A stretch of 50,590 nt of DNA from Candidatus Hydrothermarchaeales archaeon. Its GTDB lineage: Archaea > Hydrothermarchaeota > Hydrothermarchaeia > Hydrothermarchaeales > JAZGAD01. The notes under the pieces were generated by a model. The model did no database searches, was not told where the DNA came from, and saw only the letters and a program-made list of their open reading frames with translations. The stretch covers positions 1 through 50,590 of the forward strand of contig JAZGAD010000006.1 of the NCBI GenBank assembly GCA_036444275.1, read 5' to 3'. Every line of letters begins with the position of its first letter. The stretch's first letter is position 1. Below are positions 1 through 14,166 of the stretch, in pieces. Position numbers and translations under genes: made by a program.

Positions 1-1061
1 CCATGGGCACTAGAGCTGGAGCCGAGATGACCAGCTTCGAGATGCGTTTCTGTGCCATCAGGATAAAAGACATAAACGCCCCTATAGGCACGATAGCAGT
101 CGGCTTCAAGGCACCTGTGATCAATGCCAAGAATGAGAAATTCATGCAGACCAAATACGCCCATATTGGAGGAGAAGCAGCTCCAACGCCGCTGCGCGTC
201 CATGGGCCTATGGAAGAGGTGCGTGAGGGAAGAGGCCCCTGCTACATAGACACCCGTGGTATAAGCAAGGAGCAGGTGAGGGCGCTGAAAGAGGACTACC
301 TAGACGAGTATCCAACTTTGGCATTATACCTCGCCTCCAAGGATATAGACCTAGAGAAAGAACCCCTGGAGATATACGGCACAGACCCATACATCGTCGG
401 CGGGCACTGCAACTCCGGCTACTGGATCAACACTGATAGAAGCACAACGTTAAAAGGACTCTTCGCAGCTGGAGACGTGGCAGGCGGAGTAGGAAGCAAA
501 TTCGTCGGAGGATGCTTCGCCGAGGGAATGATAGCCGCCAATTCAGCATTGGAATACATCGCAAATCTCAATGTAAAAGTCAGAGAAGAGCAGGTGGAAG
601 CTGAAAAGAAGAGGATATTCGCACCTCTGGAAAGATGGAAGTCAGGAGAAGGTGGTGTAACGCCCAAAGAGATGGAGGCGCGGATGCAGAAGGTGATGGA
701 CGAATACGCTGGCGGAGTCCATTATTTTTACCAGTTAAGCGAGGACAAGCTGAGGATCGCATTGAAAGAGATAAATGGGCTGAAGGGACAGGCGAAGTAC
801 CTCATAGCAAAGGATACGCATGAGCTCATGCTGGCACACGAAGTCATAGACCGCCTGGATGTAGCCGAGGTGCTTTTACAGCACATGATATTCCGCAGGG
901 AGACGAGATGGCCGGGCTACCACACGCGCATAGACTACCCAGAGCGCGACGACGAGAAGTGGCTTGCCTTCGTAAACTCTAGAAAGAACCAAACTGGAGA
1001 GATAGAGGTATTCACCAGGCCGTATGAACAACTCGTGCCTGGAGACCGATACAAGCCGTGA
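1..1061 (+). CDS. aprA: Adenylylsulfate (APS/PAPS) reductase alpha subunit, 5'-truncated by the window edge
   Basis: Fumarate-reductase-family flavoprotein C-terminal half: GAEMTSFEMRF, GLFAAGDVAGG, RETRWPGY..R.DYP..DD..W..FVNS. Directly followed by aprB and sat. Confidence 0.9.
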   Translation, partial: MGTRAGAEMTSFEMRFCAIRIKDINAPIGTIAVGFKAPVINAKNEKFMQTKYAHIGGEAAPTPLRVHGPMEEVREGRGPCYIDTRGISKEQVRALKEDYLDEYPTLALYLASKDIDLEKEPLEIYGTDPYIVGGHCNSGYWINTDRSTTLKGLFAAGDVAGGVGSKFVGGCFAEGMIAANSALEYIANLNVKVREEQVEAEKKRIFAPLERWKSGEGGVTPKEMEARMQKVMDEYAGGVHYFYQLSEDKLRIALKEINGLKGQAKYLIAKDTHELMLAHEVIDRLDVAEVLLQHMIFRRETRWPGYHTRIDYPERDDEKWLAFVNSRKNQTGEIEVFTRPYEQLVPGDRYKP

Positions 1062-1068
1062 GGAAAAA

Positions 1069-1386
1069 ATGATTGTAGTAGATTTAGAAAAATGCACCGG
1101 GTGCAAGGGACGGAAAGAAGCTCTATGTGTAGAGATCTGCCCAGGTGATTTAATGGCAATAGATAAAGATACGAAGAAAGCTAGAATACGTGAGCCAGGC
1201 GACTGCTGGGACTGCATGGCCTGCGTCAAAGCGTGCCCCTTCAAGGCACTGGCGACGAGGCTGCCCTACCCATTGGGCTACTATGGAGCCAGCTTAGTAC
1301 CAACTAAAACTGGAGACAAGATCGTGTGGGAGCTCACAGATATCAAGGGCAACAAAGAGGTATTCGAGAGGAAGGTGAAGCTATGA
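1069..1386 (+). CDS. aprB: APS reductase beta subunit (short 2x[4Fe-4S] ferredoxin)
   Basis: CTGC...CVEICP and CWDCMACVKACP motifs. Start moved to the ATG at 1069 after GTGAGG. Confidence 0.88.
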   Translation: MIVVDLEKCTGCKGRKEALCVEICPGDLMAIDKDTKKARIREPGDCWDCMACVKACPFKALATRLPYPLGYYGASLVPTKTGDKIVWELTDIKGNKEVFERKVKL

Positions 1387-3260
1387 AACGTCAGACACCA
1401 GTCGGAGGAAAGCTAGTAGATAGGATGTTGAAGGGAAAGAAGAGCGAGAGCGCTGCAGATGAAGCACTGGAGATGTCCTCTATACACGTAGGCCAGGACT
1501 CTACTATAACCCTGGAGATGATTGCTACAGGCGTCCTCAGCCCATTAGAAGGATTTTTAAAAAGCGAGGACTATCGCAGCGTCCTCTATGAGAAGCGCTT
1601 GGCAGATGGTACGCCTTGGACCATACCCCAGACATTCGCACCTTTTGGAGACGGCAGGGAAGAGCTAGTCAAAAAAGTGAAGGAAGGCGAAGACATAGCG
1701 CTCGTGGACGATGACTCAAAGCCTGTTGCCATTCTGCACGTGGAAGAGAAGTTTACCTTTGATAGGGAGGAGCGAGCAACGCAGATATTCGGCACCACTG
1801 ATAAGGGGCATCCAGGCGTGGACCACATCTACAGGAGGATGAGCGACACAGCTTTGGCAGGGAAGATAGACATGCTCAGGCGCCCATTGTGGGGTCCGTT
1901 TGAGAAATATAGATTAGAACCCAAGGATACCTGGAGGATATTCTACGAGGAGAATGGATGGAACAGCATCGTAGGCTTCCAGACAGCAAATCCCCTGCAC
2001 AGGGGACATGAGTACCTCCAGAAATGTTCTTTAGAAATATTCGACGGCCTCTTCATAAATCCAATCGTGGAGACAACGAGGAAGGCCTACTTCAGAAACG
2101 AGTTCAGGATAAAGGCATACGAGGCGGCTCTCAATCTCTACTACCCAAAGGAGAGCGTTGTATTCGCACCTCTCAGGGTGATCATGCGCTACGCAGGTCC
2201 AAGAGAGGCGATAATGCATGCCTTGATAAGGAGGAACTACGGGTGTACGCACCTCATACTGGGGAGGGATCACGCAGGCTTCGCTAACTACTACCCGAAA
2301 TATGCAGCCCAGGAGATATTCGGCGAGTTCGAGAACGGCGAGCTAGGCATAACGCCGCTCTTCTTCAGAGAAGCGTTTTACTGCACGAGGTGTGCCTCGA
2401 TAGCTACTGAGAGGACATGCCCGCATTCAGGCGAGTACCACGTTACCATGAGCGCCTCCTCGACGCAGGAGATATTCAGGTACGGCTACGTGCCTCCTAA
2501 AGAAATTATGCGGCCGGAAGTGGCGCAGGTAGCGATGCAGGGTATACAGCCAAAGGGCGTGGACAAGAACGGCTGGGCGTTACAGCCGCCTGGTGATACG
2601 ATAAAGGGCTTGTTCCCCTTCTACTTAACCCACCAGAGGCTCGGGGGCTATCCCAGGCGCGAAGCCCTTGATCCTAAATCGTTGACTGTAGAAGACTTGA
2701 GGACTGCTCTTCTAGATGTCAGGAAGAATGCCGACAAAATATATGATGGAGTATATGAGGGAATAGCGCACTACTTCGACATCTCTAGAAGCATAGCGTC
2801 GAGGCAGAGAAGCGAGACCCAAGAGGAGGCGATTCTCAGGCAGAAAGACTTGATTTCTGCTCTGGAGGAAAAGGTGAAAGTAGCCTCTGAGAAGGTCCAT
2901 GATCCATTCATGTACCAGGATAAAGCAGAGGCAGAGAGAGAGCTGAGGGTAGCCAAGCTCATCCTGGGAGACCTGCAGAGGCCGGGCCCAGAAGAATTCA
3001 CATCCCGAATATGGAATCCCATGGAGTTCGAGGCCTACCGCCATACCTTAGACATCACCGGTGAGATCTGCCCTGATACGCTCGTCGAGACCCAGAAGAA
3101 GATTGACGAGATAGCAAACGGCGACGAGCTCGCTGTTATAACGGACTACAAGCTTGCTACCGAGACTATACCCAGGTGGGCGAAGAAGGAGGGATATGAC
3201 GTACAGGTAGAGAAAAAGGGGAATAGATGGGAGATCCTCATTAGAAAGGTGAAGAAATAG
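1383..3260 (+). CDS. sat: Sulfate adenylyltransferase with an extra internal helical region and a C-terminal TusA/SirA-like domain
   Basis: SPLEGF, FQTANPLHRGHE, MRYAGPREA..HA.IRRNYGCTH.I.GRDHAG, MRPEV. The C-terminus LDITGEICP...IRK is TusA-like. ATG at 1383 overlaps the aprB stop (ATGA). Confidence 0.9.
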   Translation: MKRQTPVGGKLVDRMLKGKKSESAADEALEMSSIHVGQDSTITLEMIATGVLSPLEGFLKSEDYRSVLYEKRLADGTPWTIPQTFAPFGDGREELVKKVKEGEDIALVDDDSKPVAILHVEEKFTFDREERATQIFGTTDKGHPGVDHIYRRMSDTALAGKIDMLRRPLWGPFEKYRLEPKDTWRIFYEENGWNSIVGFQTANPLHRGHEYLQKCSLEIFDGLFINPIVETTRKAYFRNEFRIKAYEAALNLYYPKESVVFAPLRVIMRYAGPREAIMHALIRRNYGCTHLILGRDHAGFANYYPKYAAQEIFGEFENGELGITPLFFREAFYCTRCASIATERTCPHSGEYHVTMSASSTQEIFRYGYVPPKEIMRPEVAQVAMQGIQPKGVDKNGWALQPPGDTIKGLFPFYLTHQRLGGYPRREALDPKSLTVEDLRTALLDVRKNADKIYDGVYEGIAHYFDISRSIASRQRSETQEEAILRQKDLISALEEKVKVASEKVHDPFMYQDKAEAERELRVAKLILGDLQRPGPEEFTSRIWNPMEFEAYRHTLDITGEICPDTLVETQKKIDEIANGDELAVITDYKLATETIPRWAKKEGYDVQVEKKGNRWEILIRKVKK

Positions 3261-4121
3261 ATGAAGAAGGGAGTAATATCCCAGAGGCAGGAGGGTTACG
3301 TCACTCTACGCCTGCCGAGCAGCGGCAGGATAAGTTCTGAACAGTTAAGAAAGCTTGCCGACGTAGCAGGCGAAGAAGGAAAGGGCTTTGCGCTTTTAAC
3401 AATGCGGAAGAGCGTGGAGCTGCCCTGGATAAAAAAGGAGTCGGCAGAGAGAGTTATCGACGAGCTCAATGAAGTAGGTTTGAAGCCGGGTTCCACGGCC
3501 AGAGAGATCAGGGAAGTGATGGCTTGCGCAGGCCAGGAGCGGTGCCCGTTTCTCCAGCTTGAAGTAGATAGTGTTGGGGACGAGATAAGAAAGAAGTGGT
3601 ACGGCAAGGAGATGCCGAGGAAGTTCACTATCACTTTGTGCGGCTGCCCGAACTACTGTTCCCATCCATATCTCAACGACTTCGGGATAGTGGGAAGAGC
3701 GCGTCCGAGGATAGTGATTGAGAAGTGCATTGGCTGCGGGCAGTGTGTGCGCCTATGCAGGGGCGATGCAGGCGGGGCGCTTACGCAAGAAGGTACTAAG
3801 ACACCTGAGATAGACTACGACCGCTGTATAGAATGCGGGTGGTGCATAACCAACTGCCCTACAGGCGCGATGGAGGCAGAGAAGTTCGGATGCACGATTA
3901 CAGCAGGCGGGAGAGGCGGTACCAAGCCGAGGATAGCCACTGAGATAATCAGGATTGCAAGCGAAGAGGAGATGTTCAAGATCCTGGAGCGGGCCATTCA
4001 ATATGTCAAAGAATACGCAGATGGTACTGAAAGGCTGGCTGACATCATGGAAAAAAGAGGCGTAGAACACTTCATGGAATATGCGCTCCCAAAAAGCAGG
4101 GAGGTGAACGAGGATGACTAA
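3261..4121 (+). CDS. Siroheme-[4Fe-4S] sulfite/nitrite reductase-like protein (Dsr-like/AsrC/Fsr-C type) with ferredoxin insert, paralogue 1
   Basis: CAGQERC (Cx5C) and GCPNYC (Cx3C), DFGIVG, two CxxCxxCxxxC motifs, GGRGG..P. Confidence 0.85.
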   Translation: MKKGVISQRQEGYVTLRLPSSGRISSEQLRKLADVAGEEGKGFALLTMRKSVELPWIKKESAERVIDELNEVGLKPGSTAREIREVMACAGQERCPFLQLEVDSVGDEIRKKWYGKEMPRKFTITLCGCPNYCSHPYLNDFGIVGRARPRIVIEKCIGCGQCVRLCRGDAGGALTQEGTKTPEIDYDRCIECGWCITNCPTGAMEAEKFGCTITAGGRGGTKPRIATEIIRIASEEEMFKILERAIQYVKEYADGTERLADIMEKRGVEHFMEYALPKSREVNEDD

Positions 4122-4992
4122 GCTCAGGGGAGGCATGGGGCTGCTTGCTCAGAGCCAGAAGGACTATGTTACAATACGCCTTCAAGTCACAAGAGGCAAA
4201 TTAAGCATTGAACAGCTCAATGGCATAGCTGACGTGCTGGATAACTATGGGAAGGGCTTCGCCATACCAACGATACGCAAGGGACTTGAGATTCCTTGGA
4301 TCAAATTTGAGGACTCGCCGAAAGTGCTAGAAGAATTCAAGAAGCTGGGATTGAAAGCAGGCTCCTGCGGCACCAAGATAAGAACCATCGTTGCATGCGC
4401 AGGCATGGACCACTGCCCACTCGGCCTAGTAGACATAGAAGGGGCATATGCAAAGCTTAAAGACGAATACTATGAGCGCGATACACCCACGAAATTCAAG
4501 ATCTCTATTTGTGGCTGCCCAATGGCATGCTCGCATCCCCACATAAACGACTTCGGAATAATAGGCAGGATACGCCCAAAGATAATAGCCGAAAAATGCG
4601 ACGGATGCGGCATCTGCGCCCGGGTATGCAAGGGTGAAGAGGCTGAAGCAAAGTATAAGGTGGAGCAGGATGCCATCGTCGAGGGAAATCCACCAAAGAT
4701 AGACTACGACCGATGTATCGGCTGCGGACTTTGCATGAGAAGCTGTCCTAGAGAAGCTATAGCGGCAGAGGAAGCTGGCTTTGCCTTATTCATAGGTGGA
4801 AAAGGCGGGAGGCACCCAAGGTTTGGAGAGGAAGTCGTCGGCTTGGTGAGCGAAGAGGAGATGTTCCGCATACTGGACAAGACTCTAAAGTACTTCAAGA
4901 AATTCGCCCAGGGCAAGGAGCGCATTGTCGAGGTGATTAATAGGAAGGGTATAGAGCATTTCAAGAACTATGTGCTGGAGGGAGGAGAATGA
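4114..4992 (+). CDS. Siroheme-[4Fe-4S] sulfite/nitrite reductase-like protein, paralogue 2
   Basis: CAGMDHC, PTKFKISICGCPMAC, two ferredoxin motifs, GGKGGRHP. Colinear with the upstream paralogue. Confidence 0.85.
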   Translation: MTKLRGGMGLLAQSQKDYVTIRLQVTRGKLSIEQLNGIADVLDNYGKGFAIPTIRKGLEIPWIKFEDSPKVLEEFKKLGLKAGSCGTKIRTIVACAGMDHCPLGLVDIEGAYAKLKDEYYERDTPTKFKISICGCPMACSHPHINDFGIIGRIRPKIIAEKCDGCGICARVCKGEEAEAKYKVEQDAIVEGNPPKIDYDRCIGCGLCMRSCPREAIAAEEAGFALFIGGKGGRHPRFGEEVVGLVSEEEMFRILDKTLKYFKKFAQGKERIVEVINRKGIEHFKNYVLEGGE

Positions 4993-6056
4993 GGTTCGAG
5001 GAGCTTAAAAAAGACATTATAGACCCTGGGTTCTGTATACACTGCGGCGCATGTACAGCTTTCTGTAACAGGCTCAAGTTGAACTTGAAGCCAGAGCTTG
5101 TAGAGGAGTGTGTCGCAACCTGTTCATCGCCCTACGGAGAGCACGGGCTATGCTATGAGCACTGCCCTATGGTGAGGGTAATAGAAGCGAGGCATATCTT
5201 TCCGCAAGGCGAGGGCGGCATACTAGGCAACTACAAGGGCATAAAGTCAGCTAGATCCAAAGAGGATGAAGTCTTAAAGAATGCGCAGGACGGTGGAGTA
5301 GCGACCTCTATACTTGCTGCCGCATTCAAAACAGGGAAGATAGACGCAGCGCTCATCGTGGGCAGAGACGAACTCTGGAAGAGTGCTCCAAGGCTTATAA
5401 CCTCGCTTGACGAGCTCAAGGGGAGCGGGGGATCCAAATACACTGAAACGCCAGCTGTGCACCTGCTCGGCAAAGCATCGAGAGACGGTGCGAAGAGTAT
5501 TGCAGTGGTTGCTGTGTCCTGTCAGATCCAGGCTTTAAGGAACTTGGAATACAGCCTCCTATACCCGGACGGCTTCTCCCCCTATTCTGATTTAAAAATA
5601 TACGTAATAGGCTTATTCTGCTCAGGCGCATTCAGCTATGAGCGACTCCTTCAAAAGCTGGATGTCGATCCCAAGGAGATAGAGAAGATGGATGTCGAGG
5701 AAGGGGATTTTACTCTACACTACAACGGCAAGGTCAAGAAGATACCTTTGAAGGAGCTGAAGGACGCGATGATGCCCAGCTGCCGCCTATGCAGGGATTA
5801 TACTGCTAAGCTGGCTGACATTTCACTCGGCTCTATAGGGACAAAACCGGGATGGACTACTGTGATAGAGAGAAACCTGAAGGGATGGGGATTGCTCCGG
5901 GATGCGCAAAACGAGGGCCTGGTCGAGGTCAAAGAGGATGTCGACAAGGAAAAACTTGAGAGGATTGTGAAGAAGAGGCTGGATAGAATCGAGAAGAGGA
6001 TAAAGAGGAGGCTGGAAGAAAAGCTGCCTTTGCCCCCGGTCACTTTCCAGGAATAA
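4989..6056 (+). CDS. F420H2 dehydrogenase / F420 hydrogenase beta-subunit family protein (FrhB/FpoF/Fsr-N-like)
   Basis: N-terminal ferredoxin CIHCGAC, AQDGGVATS, GSKY, CQIQALR, IGLFC, CRLCRD..A..ADISLGS.G...GWTTVI.R. Confidence 0.88.
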   Translation: MRFEELKKDIIDPGFCIHCGACTAFCNRLKLNLKPELVEECVATCSSPYGEHGLCYEHCPMVRVIEARHIFPQGEGGILGNYKGIKSARSKEDEVLKNAQDGGVATSILAAAFKTGKIDAALIVGRDELWKSAPRLITSLDELKGSGGSKYTETPAVHLLGKASRDGAKSIAVVAVSCQIQALRNLEYSLLYPDGFSPYSDLKIYVIGLFCSGAFSYERLLQKLDVDPKEIEKMDVEEGDFTLHYNGKVKKIPLKELKDAMMPSCRLCRDYTAKLADISLGSIGTKPGWTTVIERNLKGWGLLRDAQNEGLVEVKEDVDKEKLERIVKKRLDRIEKRIKRRLEEKLPLPPVTFQE

Positions 6057-6405
6057 AACAAGCGTCGCATCCCTCAGGTACAAGAGCATGTTGTTTATGG
6101 GGTCCGCAGAGCGTGCGATCAGCCTTCACCTGCCCGCAGATCCTGCATATATCTAGGATCATATTCCCCTCCTTGTTCTCCACTATCTTTTCAGCCAGCT
6201 CGCTTATGGCTTTCTTCACGCCTTTCTTTAGCGCTATCTTGCTTCCTCTCTTCTTCTTCATGTACTGGGAAACAGCTGCTTCGGTCATACCCAGGCGCTG
6301 GGAAACCTCCCTCTGGTTCAGGCCACGATCTACGAGTTCCTTCGCTAACTCGGACTTTATACTGGGCAGGACATACCAAACCACAAGCTCGCACGGTGAT
6401 TTCAT
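6040..6405 (-). CDS. Archaeal HTH transcriptional regulator with Cys/His-rich C-terminus
   Basis: PCE..VWYVLP.I...LA..L..GL.Q..V...LG.T.AAVSQY..KRG, then CxxC...C..H...CxxC. Confidence 0.8.
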   Translation of the reverse strand: MKSPCELVVWYVLPSIKSELAKELVDRGLNQREVSQRLGMTEAAVSQYMKKKRGSKIALKKGVKKAISELAEKIVENKEGNMILDICRICGQVKADRTLCGPHKQHALVPEGCDACFIPGK

Positions 6406-9232: not shown

Positions 9233-10707
<1,475 letters not shown>

Positions 10708-10757
10708 GAGCAACGGCATCGTAGCTAGGCACTATAACTGTCGAGTTTAGTCTGCGT

Positions 10758-10830
10758 GGGCCCGTAGCTCAGTTGGAAGAGTGTCCGCTTTGCAGGCGGA
10801 ATGCCCCGGGTTCAAGTCCCGGCGGGTCCA
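10758..10830 (+). tRNA. tRNA-Ala (UGC) in the rRNA spacer
   Basis: GGGCCCG acceptor stem, TCCGC-TTTGCAG-GCGGA anticodon arm, GGTTCAAGTCC T-arm. CCA is not fully encoded. Confidence 0.96.
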
Positions 10831-10994
10831 CCTTTTGAGCGGACAAGAATATAGAAAGAACAAGAATAAGAAAGAAGAGGCAGCCCGTGAGATATTTTGC
10901 GGGTGAAGAGGCAGAGTTTGGCTTTATGCTAAAACTGTGATGCCCTGCATAGTTTGGTCGAGCGCATTCCGATTTAGTGCTCCAGTAAGATAAG

Positions 10995-14010
<3,016 letters not shown>

Positions 14011-14166
14011 TCCGAAAAAGCATTGGATCGGGCGTTGATCGACCAGGCTATGCAGGGCACATATATCTTCTATTAATTAAGCTGTTAGTTGGATATATCT
14101 TAAGTTGAGCCTAGAAAGAAATTTAGGGTTTTTGCGTGCCCATACATAGAAAATTTGCCTTGAGAT

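Follow-up and report, generated by a model that had tools for sequence, protein, structure and literature searches.

A sulfate-to-sulfide gene cluster with a predicted unfused, F420-linked Fsr-type sulfite reductase in a Hydrothermarchaeales archaeon

Organization of the Sulfur Operon

The stretch of DNA analysed here (the window) spans positions 1–50,590 of contig C6 (JAZGAD010000006.1) of Candidatus Hydrothermarchaeales archaeon, an uncultured organism of the deep sea, whose assembly (GCA_036444275.1) totals 1.49 Mb in 61 contigs and is 81% complete with 0.1% contamination. Its positions 3–6056 are filled by six plus-strand open reading frames (ORFs), assigned with Pfam and NCBIfam, in the order aprA-like, aprB-like, sat with a C-terminal TusA domain, sirA, sirB, and frhB-like. 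A sequence-only reading of this DNA had described six abutting or overlapping genes, and the junction sequences confirm it: the aprB start is most likely the ATG at 1069, 8 nt past the aprA stop, and the sat start is the ATG at 1383, within an ATGA that also contains the aprB stop (both moved from the ORF call on reading the junctions); sirA (3261) begins directly after the sat stop, sirB (4114) has 8 nt in common with sirA, and frhB (4989) shares an ATGA overlap with sirB. The genes are translationally coupled, and a GGAGG-like motif lies upstream of each start.

As noted earlier for the visible part of the sequence, a Pfam scan of the window's proteins found no qmo, dsrC, dsrMK, or kinase gene for adenosine 5′-phosphosulfate (APS); in the whole assembly there is no match to DsrC, DsrAB, or a membrane partner, and no siroheme protein was found besides SirA and SirB. 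Two weak matches to the APS kinase P-loop in this genome are AAA_33/KTI12-like and AAA_18 proteins, not a true APS kinase, and a PAPS_reduct-family protein on contig C53 scores far under every CysH and APS reductase cut-off and was not used. No second Sat or AprA was found elsewhere in the assembly, and MCR alpha has no match there; the host is not a methanogen.

Two Small Siroheme Reductases of the Fsr-C Type

sirA (3261–4121, plus strand) encodes a small siroheme-[4Fe-4S] reductase of 286 residues and of the Fsr-C/Dsr-LP type (NIR_SIR, 3.9e-23; NIR_SIR_ferr, 3.6e-16; Fer4), and sirB (4114–4992, plus strand) encodes a second, of 292 residues (Pfam NIR_SIR and NIR_SIR_ferr). The two proteins are 44% identical, each carries an inserted 2x[4Fe-4S] ferredoxin domain with 8 Cys, and the siroheme motif CX5C...CX3C is kept in all Sir proteins aligned. 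Against the PDB, SirB matches residues 353–609 of Fsr, the F420-dependent sulfite reductase of methanogens, with an E value of 1.9e-42 (7np8_A), and DsrB with only 3e-15. In a tree of 41 Sir rows, drawn without methanogen Dsr-LP sequences, the operon Sir clade, with 27 rows and an SH-aLRT of 93, has as its sister group the C-halves of two Fsr-type fusions together with a distant Sir pair. The tree and the PDB matches alike place Sir nearest to Fsr-C, as the earlier proposal of a split Fsr would have it.

Two other identities were ruled out. SirA and SirB reach 140 and 128.8 bits against the AsrC equivalog TIGR02912 (cut-off 324.1), and the AsrC-like proteins, all 10 of which have His at the position of the first substrate Lys, are set apart in the Sir tree by a long branch (length 1.48, support 100). 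DsrAB identity fails on scores of 78–100 bits to the NCBIfam dsrA and dsrB models, with cut-offs of 341.5 and 392.85, and on the lack of a DsrC match in the assembly. The window's Sir proteins have the features by which Dsr-LP group III was defined, namely the siroheme motif, the Arg/Lys residues, and the peripheral and additional [4Fe-4S] clusters; among archaea, the available text of that report describes Dsr-LPs only in methanogens (PMC3448663). A search for longer, fused relatives of SirB gave three matches, none of them an Fsr; the Fsr-type fusions discussed below came from the FrhB-like profile search instead.

Sulfite is reported to be bound in Fsr by Arg355, Arg423, Lys460, and Lys462 (bioRxiv 10.1101/2022.04.07.487323). 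The same R-R-K-K set, that of group I Fsr, is present in SirB, in all single-copy Sir proteins, and in 10 of 10 SirB relatives that are without the ferredoxin insert. SirA reads R-R-K-T, so that one of the four residues is altered (Lys to Thr); the last position of the SirA lineage is T here, N in Candidatus Hydrothermarchaeum profundi JdFR-18, and R in one metagenome protein, and in the SirA proteins of clusters that have no apr or sat nearby (layout D below) the last Lys is kept but the second Arg is K. The ten closest SirB relatives (64–75% identical over shared parts; P0205–P0221 and L008:7306–8016) are 226–233 residues long and have lost the whole 2x[4Fe-4S] insert, which the window's SirB, branching below these ten (support 99), retains.

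DsrAB is itself a heterodimer of paralogous siroheme subunits of which only one site is thought to be catalytic. A pair of this kind seems to have arisen independently in SirA and SirB, which differ from DsrAB in being about 100 residues shorter per subunit and in that no DsrC was found. From the residue pattern we infer that, once duplicated, SirB kept the catalytic role and SirA turned chiefly into an electron conduit, in parallel with DsrAB; most relatives have a SirB with no ferredoxin insert, and a substrate Lys is gone from SirA. The pair would represent a second, independent duplication of a siroheme reductase into unequal subunits and as such bears on the origin of DsrAB.

A second small Sir pair, distant from the first (26–38% identity), occurs in one family of Hydrothermarchaeota (L061–L067; G006–G008, G012, G014–G016) with no FrhB-like gene beside it. 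In L063, the one such pair aligned, both members have Thr at the last sulfite-binding position, and two small ORFs without Pfam matches follow the pair.

A Stand-Alone FrhB-Like Protein

The last gene of the operon, frhB-like (4989–6056, plus strand), encodes 355 residues and a putative F420H2-oxidising electron-input subunit (FrhB_FdhB_N, 8e-20; FrhB_FdhB_C, 2.3e-37). Across 26 aligned sequences, the N-terminal 8-Cys domain, of the 2x[4Fe-4S] kind, has C16, C19, C22, C26, C41, C55, and C59 invariant and C45 nearly so, and in the flavin core C178, C211, C265, and C268 are invariant and the QDGG and GSKY columns are conserved. The best PDB matches are 8riu_B (370 residues, 183 bits), FrhB itself (3zfs_C, 175 bits), a 613-residue FrhB-domain protein (170 bits), and residues 6–329 of Fsr (7np8_A, 163 bits). 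FdhB chains score 45–71 bits against 163–183 for the Fsr, FrhB, and 8riu chains, which rules out an FdhB, and a score of 201.8 to the frhB equivalog, with a cut-off of 331.5, rules out a true FrhB.

The FrhB-like protein is collinear, end to end and including the linker, with residues 9–367 of the Fsr-type fusion P0106 (30% identity), and SirB aligns with residues 418–649 of the same fusion (36% identity). Every element of the electron relay described for Fsr in the preprint (bioRxiv 10.1101/2022.04.07.487323) has a counterpart among the operon proteins. As in the group I Fsr of Methanococcales (PDB 7NP8, 7NPA), there are a 2x[4Fe-4S] ferredoxin domain, an FrhB core with one cluster, a Sir part that carries a 2x[4Fe-4S] insert, and both the siroheme Cys motif and R-R-K-K. 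Fsr differs in being one polypeptide and a homotetramer, where here there are two or three genes and a reductase duplicated into SirA and SirB, and in its setting: the operon host has no MCR that was found, and its module is linked to sat and aprAB, in contrast to the separate fsr locus reported for Methanothermococcus thermolithotrophicus (PMC10322725).

F420 is a plausible cofactor in this organism, because CofD and CofE of F420 biosynthesis are encoded side by side on contig C27 and the assembly has six FrhB-family genes, that is, five besides the operon copy. The nearest paralogue in the genome (C44:2346–8110, L068) lies between an HdrBC-like gene (Fer4 and CCG) and a gene for a 996-residue double HdrA-like protein, followed by MvhD, and this gene cluster looks like an F420-linked Hdr-type complex. 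Stand-alone subunits of the same kind are described for the CO dehydrogenase and formylmethanofuran dehydrogenase of ethane-oxidising archaea (8RIU, 8RJA; PMC11493965): 8riu_B aligns over residues 6–316 and has the same N-terminal ferredoxin domain, the differences being the partner enzymes and the direction of electrons, which there run toward F420 and here would run from it. Since such subunits serve other enzymes, the FrhB family appears to work as a plug-in F420 module (PMC11493965). Prediction of a complex of SirA, SirB, and the FrhB-like protein from alignments scored 0.83, 0.83, and 0.80, and controls with a replaced partner scored 0.00 and 0.00 but 0.64 when SirB was replaced; the prediction is counted neither for nor against binding.

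Two further forms of FrhB-like protein were seen. On contig C58 (9754–13254) an FrhB-like module ends a single frame of 1166 codons, the first ~900 residues of which seem, by eye, to be membrane-spanning; either a fusion or two genes may occupy the frame. Circularly permuted proteins, in which the C-terminal profile half comes first and is followed by the ferredoxin and the N-terminal half, are encoded at C33:46092–47231 and in P0100, P0153, P0183, P0188, and P0190.

Conservation of the sir–frhB Unit

All 38 genomes of the phylum were surveyed with SirB, orthologues being the matches at E ≤ 1e-79 (43–51% identity). Ten of them, this one included, have a Sir orthologue, the other matches being the distant small Sir pair and DsrAB-like proteins; the only other genome of the window's own family (80% complete) gave no Sir match. 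With longer flanks, the FrhB-like gene is found in the cluster in nine of the ten genomes, and in the tenth the contig stops at sir. In metagenomes frhB stands right after sir at four of five loci, the fifth contig again stopping at sir, and the cluster is present at five of six genome loci of the Hydrothermarchaeota type, with the sixth on a 3.2-kb contig that begins just before frhB. Close homologues of the FrhB-like protein (57–65% identity) are labelled Candidatus Hydrothermarchaeota, and related loci include those of JdFR-18 and BMS3Abin16. The earlier reading, which had put the Sir and FrhB-like modules on separate polypeptides in one operon with Sat and AprAB and had named a lack of synteny as the finding that would speak against it, is borne out on both counts.

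Four layouts occur: aprA-aprB-sat-sirA-sirB-frhB in two genomes, this one and JdFR-18 (layout A); aprA-aprB-sat-sir-frhB in three (layout B); frhB-aprA-aprB-sat::TusA-sir in two, L012 and L060 (layout C); and sirA-sirB-frhB, with no apr or sat nearby, in two (layout D). Linkage to sat and aprAB is thus seen in seven of nine genomes, and frhB directly follows sir in seven of nine. Neither layout-D genome (57% and 96% complete) has a match to ATP sulfurylase, so that frhB tracks sir and not apr or sat. In all relatives examined sir and frhB are separate ORFs with their own starts and stops, and none is a single-polypeptide Fsr. Sir and the FrhB-like protein are a conserved unit, probably an unfused Fsr-type enzyme that can stand alone like methanogen fsr; conservation and residue evidence together support well the prediction that such a reductase is encoded in one operon with Sat and an AprAB-like enzyme. 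In one layout-D genome (G025; L057:5703–7814) genes for an ATP-dependent sulfur transferase of the LarE type (TIGR00268, 317 bits) and for threonine synthase (TIGR00260, 311 bits) come next.

The group II Fsr of anaerobic methanotrophic (ANME) archaea is reported to be an F420-dependent nitrite reductase (PMC9295563), and one substrate-binding residue is altered in SirA; the module could accordingly be read as a reductase of nitrite or another oxyanion for which the position next to sat and apr has no functional meaning. This is highly improbable in view of the sat and aprAB linkage and of the R-R-K-K set in SirB and every single-copy Sir, where the two Arg are matched in the group II-like fusion P0130 by K and a gap.

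ATP Sulfurylase and the AprAB-Like Reductase

The aprA-like gene (3–1061, plus strand; 352 codons) is the 3′ part of a gene for the flavin adenine dinucleotide subunit of a reductase of APS or 3′-phosphoadenosine 5′-phosphosulfate (PAPS), of the type of the M. thermolithotrophicus PAPS reductase, MtPAPSR (NF005331, 393 bits, model positions 221–550). About 220 codons at its 5′ end are lost at the contig start, and the missing part is nowhere else in the assembly. The fragment scores 339 bits against MtPAPSR alpha (8a8o_A) vs. 209 bits against AprA of Archaeoglobus fulgidus, and a full-length orthologue 626.7 vs. 407 bits. The aprB-like gene (1069–1386, plus strand; TIGR02060, 87.8 bits) encodes a 105-residue 2x[4Fe-4S] protein whose best PDB match is MtPAPSR beta (8a8o_C, 74.7 bits), by a narrow margin over 71.9 and 69.6 bits; its length is close to the 104 residues of MtPAPSR beta, and it is without the C-terminal tail of dissimilatory AprB (chains of 150–166 residues).

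The sat gene (1383–3260, plus strand) joins PUA_2 (3.4e-44), ATP-sulfurylase (9.8e-78), and TusA (8.5e-21) Pfam domains in one frame; it scores 442 bits to NF003166 (cut-off 387), and its best PDB match is the ATP sulfurylase of M. thermolithotrophicus (8a8d_A, 324.6 bits). A conserved extension of about 165 residues separates the catalytic part from the TusA domain (approximately nt 3042–3257), which has a conserved Cys in the context C-P-[DT]-[TP]. Extension and TusA are both kept in L012 and L060, the extension without TusA in L008, and neither in L009 and L010. Fold prediction of the two from a four-row alignment gave a mean pLDDT of 56.3 and was confident in the TusA part only, and the extension had no usable match in a protein atlas. 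A metagenome protein of 763 residues (P0255) that combines NIR_SIR and TusA is a second case tying TusA to a siroheme reductase pathway. Five relatives (G002, G003, G005, G034, G035) have a second ATP sulfurylase away from the operon, on other contigs (frames of 422–553 residues, 224–229 bits), and G003 also has a third (395 residues, 293.5 bits); this genome and JdFR-18 have the operon copy only.

Judged by its nearest PDB relatives, the whole operon resembles the assimilatory pathway of M. thermolithotrophicus, which consists of ATPS (8A8D), PAPSR (8A8O), APSK, PAPP, and Fsr (PMC10322725): Sat, AprA, and AprB have their best solved relatives in it, and the final reductase is of the Fsr type. 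The operon departs from that pathway in having Fsr in pieces, a Sat with an extension and TusA, and all genes in one operon; neither this genome nor three of five relatives yielded an APS kinase, and the residues that read K-R-S in MtPAPSR read R-W-G/N. Hallmarks of dissimilatory AprAB are absent: the Gln of the APS pocket (alpha-145 in A. fulgidus) is replaced by Gly or Asn in five of five full-length orthologues, AprB is short, and the closest relatives are non-dissimilatory.

Proposed Pathway and Alternative Readings

The reading considered probable makes SirA and SirB a dimeric siroheme sulfite reductase of the Fsr-C/Dsr-LP type and gives it the FrhB-like protein as a separate F420H2-oxidising subunit, the whole acting in a cytoplasmic and most likely assimilatory route. 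The FrhB-like protein would bind the SirA/SirB dimer, making an Fsr of two or three polypeptides rather than one. [quoted passage not shown] ATP sulfurylase, the soluble AprAB-like reductase, and the Sir module would together convert sulfate via APS (less likely PAPS) and sulfite to sulfide in the cytoplasm, where the TusA domain of Sat may help by handling sulfur. Reverse operation, from sulfide to sulfate with F420 as acceptor, was ruled out by redox reasoning, the potential of F420 lying far below that of the sulfite/sulfide couple.

A cytoplasmic, assimilatory route is favoured because the closest solved relatives of Sat, AprA, and AprB are assimilatory enzymes from M. thermolithotrophicus; this likeness, the shortness of AprB, an active site of the Fsr type, and the absence of coupling partners point to sulfur assimilation. 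The same enzymes might instead reduce sulfate in a dissimilatory way, for respiration or as an electron sink, with no Qmo, DsrC, or DsrMK involved, F420H2 formed from CO, H2, or ferredoxin being re-oxidised by soluble reductases and energy conserved upstream of F420. The operon Sir proteins are the only siroheme reductases found in most carriers, the phylum has been described as carboxydotrophic with sulfate as acceptor (PMC6775978), and a Sat-Apr-Asr pathway was speculated to reduce sulfate (Kato et al., 2019; PMC6759336). Dissimilation is nevertheless rather unlikely: no membrane complex, Qmo, DsrC, DsrMK, or bifurcating partner was found in or beside the clusters, whose flanking genes vary among loci; Sat, AprA, and AprB are closer to assimilatory methanogen enzymes; SirB has an active site of the Fsr group I type; and sulfate activation costs ATP that a soluble F420H2 route, with no obvious coupling site, would not seem to repay. 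In metagenomes, sat and aprAB need not mark dissimilatory sulfate reduction in these archaea.

Several findings weigh against parts of the favoured reading. In JdFR-18 the operon Sat is the only Sat found, and it stands beside two DsrAB pairs; Sat and AprAB-like may there feed dissimilatory reduction, and the earlier description of the pathway as cytoplasmic and probably assimilatory, favoured by the M. thermolithotrophicus-type Sat and AprAB, is called into question by this genome. The absences reported for the window's genome are weak evidence because the assembly is 81% complete.

Another such point concerns what the AprAB-like enzyme reduces. In MtPAPSR, Lys120, Arg121, and Ser122 are reported to confer PAPS specificity, and Gln145 of the A. 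fulgidus enzyme to clash with the 3′-phosphate (PMC10322725). The K120-R121-S122 triplet is replaced by R-W-G or R-W-N in five of five full-length orthologues and by Q-W-Q in A. fulgidus, as read from orthologues because the window's own fragment is without the specificity loop. R-W-G/N is a mixed signature as far as sequence goes, with a charge at the first position, Trp as in APS reductases, and a small third residue. A true APS kinase is present in two of six genomes checked, both of layout B (193–195 bits), and was not found in the other four, including this one. APS appears more likely than PAPS as the substrate. With respect to this choice and to the electron donor of the AprAB-like enzyme, the operon may be less self-contained than it had been called.

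The two layout-C genomes, in which frhB adjoins aprA and not sir, also count on the adverse side. The FrhB-like protein could mainly serve the AprAB-like reductase, or both reductases, with Sir then fed by ferredoxin: it is the sole electron-input module in the operon, and in the available text on MtPAPSR both the donor and an F420H2- or NAD(P)H-oxidising partner are reported as not identified (PMC10322725). Some supply of electrons from the FrhB-like protein to AprB is conceivable; that it mainly serves the AprAB-like reductase, or serves both, is very doubtful, given that genomes in which no Sat was found have sir-sir-frhB clusters with no apr adjoining and that frhB directly follows sir in most genomes and in four of five metagenome loci. 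The operon places an F420-type oxidase gene beside an MtPAPSR-like reductase, a kind of enzyme whose donor is an open question (PMC10322725).

Relationship to Fsr and to Published Clusters

The favoured view of SirA, SirB, and FrhB-like as an Fsr-type enzyme leaves the question of common origin, on which the FrhB trees are the remaining adverse evidence. A profile search with the FrhB-like protein gave 5,416 relatives, of which five clusters scored above 350 bits and the next 283; a strong Sir half was present in two of 203 relatives retained, P0106 (group I-like) and P0130 (group II-like), and a weaker one in P0124. A FastTree of 202 of 208 FrhB rows (the six dropped rows being mostly circularly permuted) shows the operon clade as one group apart from the fusions. 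A more careful maximum-likelihood (ML) tree was built from 55 hand-picked rows, namely 11 of the operon clade, 15 neighbours, three fusions, four own paralogues, and 22 spread by rank. In it the operon clade (96/74) lies inside a 16-row group (90/98) of stand-alone FrhB-like proteins that includes the paralogue on C44, and the three fusions form a clade of their own (100/99), so that the best ML tree does not make the operon clade sister to Fsr-N. A forced clade of operon and fusion sequences is not rejected (p-AU 0.581, quick tree). The gene order, sir before frhB, is the reverse of the domain order of Fsr.

Because the FrhB clade groups with stand-alone FrhB-like proteins, the sir–frhB pairing may be an independent recruitment and not a relative of Fsr. 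The sequence-only reading had asked whether the FrhB-like protein would group with hydrogenase or formate dehydrogenase subunits: it does not group with FdhB, and its companions are stand-alone FrhB-like proteins, one of them in an Hdr-like cluster, rather than Fsr-N. The suggestion that the complex is possibly ancestral was not upheld by these trees and the reversed gene order, even with the forced clade tolerated at p-AU 0.58; the sequences indicate neither an ancestor nor a split descendant of Fsr, and “ancestral” is without positive support. The operon enzyme has the same architecture as Fsr and probably works like it. A bolder version, a soluble assembly driven by F420H2 that takes sulfate to sulfide, in which one FrhB-like oxidase would feed all eight electrons along a common iron-sulfur chain to the AprAB-like enzyme and to a heterodimer of SirA (conduit) and SirB (catalytic) that independently repeats DsrA/DsrB, in which this would be the unfused pre-Fsr complex postulated in 2012, and in which it might be, beyond assimilation, the sole sulfate-reducing machinery of Dsr-less lineages, is decidedly unlikely.

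Among sulfite reductases Fsr is regarded as a prototype. A complex with Fsr-N and Fsr-C as separate subunits was proposed as an intermediate on the path to it, without an example in the text available (Susanti and Mukhopadhyay, 2012; PMC3448663); the operon family offers natural candidates for such an unfused complex, in a non-methanogenic archaeal phylum. The haloarchaeal aFsr, predicted in the same paper to have two subunits, likewise sets a stand-alone FrhB/Fsr-N homologue beside a siroheme sulfite reductase, but the putative aFsr pairs it with a large aSir-type enzyme and not with the small Dsr-LP/Fsr-C type (PMC3448663).

Apart from its FrhB gene, the cluster has been in print since 2019: contiguous sat, aprAB, and asrC, with the siroheme Cys motif, were noted in MBGE-D genomes of Hydrothermarchaeota as Sat-AprAB-AsrC/Fsr-C, and the BMS3Abin16 genome of that report is locus L011 here (Kato et al., 2019; PMC6759336). 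In the available portions of that paper no FrhB gene is tied to the cluster, “frhB” and “F420 hydrogenase” are absent from its supplementary text file, and the link to MtPAPSR, the sat-less sir-sir-frhB clusters, and the divergence of SirA and SirB are not described. No description of the FrhB partner of the Hydrothermarchaeota Sat-Apr-Sir cluster, or of a division of roles between SirA and SirB, was found in the literature. A siroheme–FrhB fusion is listed, with no details in the part available, among fusion/fission families that were kept only where their split parts lie near each other in some genome (PMC11237513).

Flanking Genes

Elsewhere the window has archaeal housekeeping genes and, some 3 kb downstream of the sulfur genes and on the same strand, a complete rRNA operon at 9233–14013 (16S, 9233–10707; tRNA, 10758–10830; 23S, 10989–14013); with these in the same window, the cluster lies on a bona fide piece of archaeal chromosome. 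A small gene convergent on frhB (6040–6405, minus strand) encodes 121 residues with weak helix-turn-helix matches followed by a Cys-rich C-terminus, and its product is a possible regulator. Proteins 62–66% identical to it are encoded after frhB in L008 and L007 and not in L009–L011. In layout-B relatives the gene convergent on frhB instead encodes a JAB/MPN-domain protein (Prok-JAB, 3.8e-15; L010:7918–8328 and L011:3951–4361).

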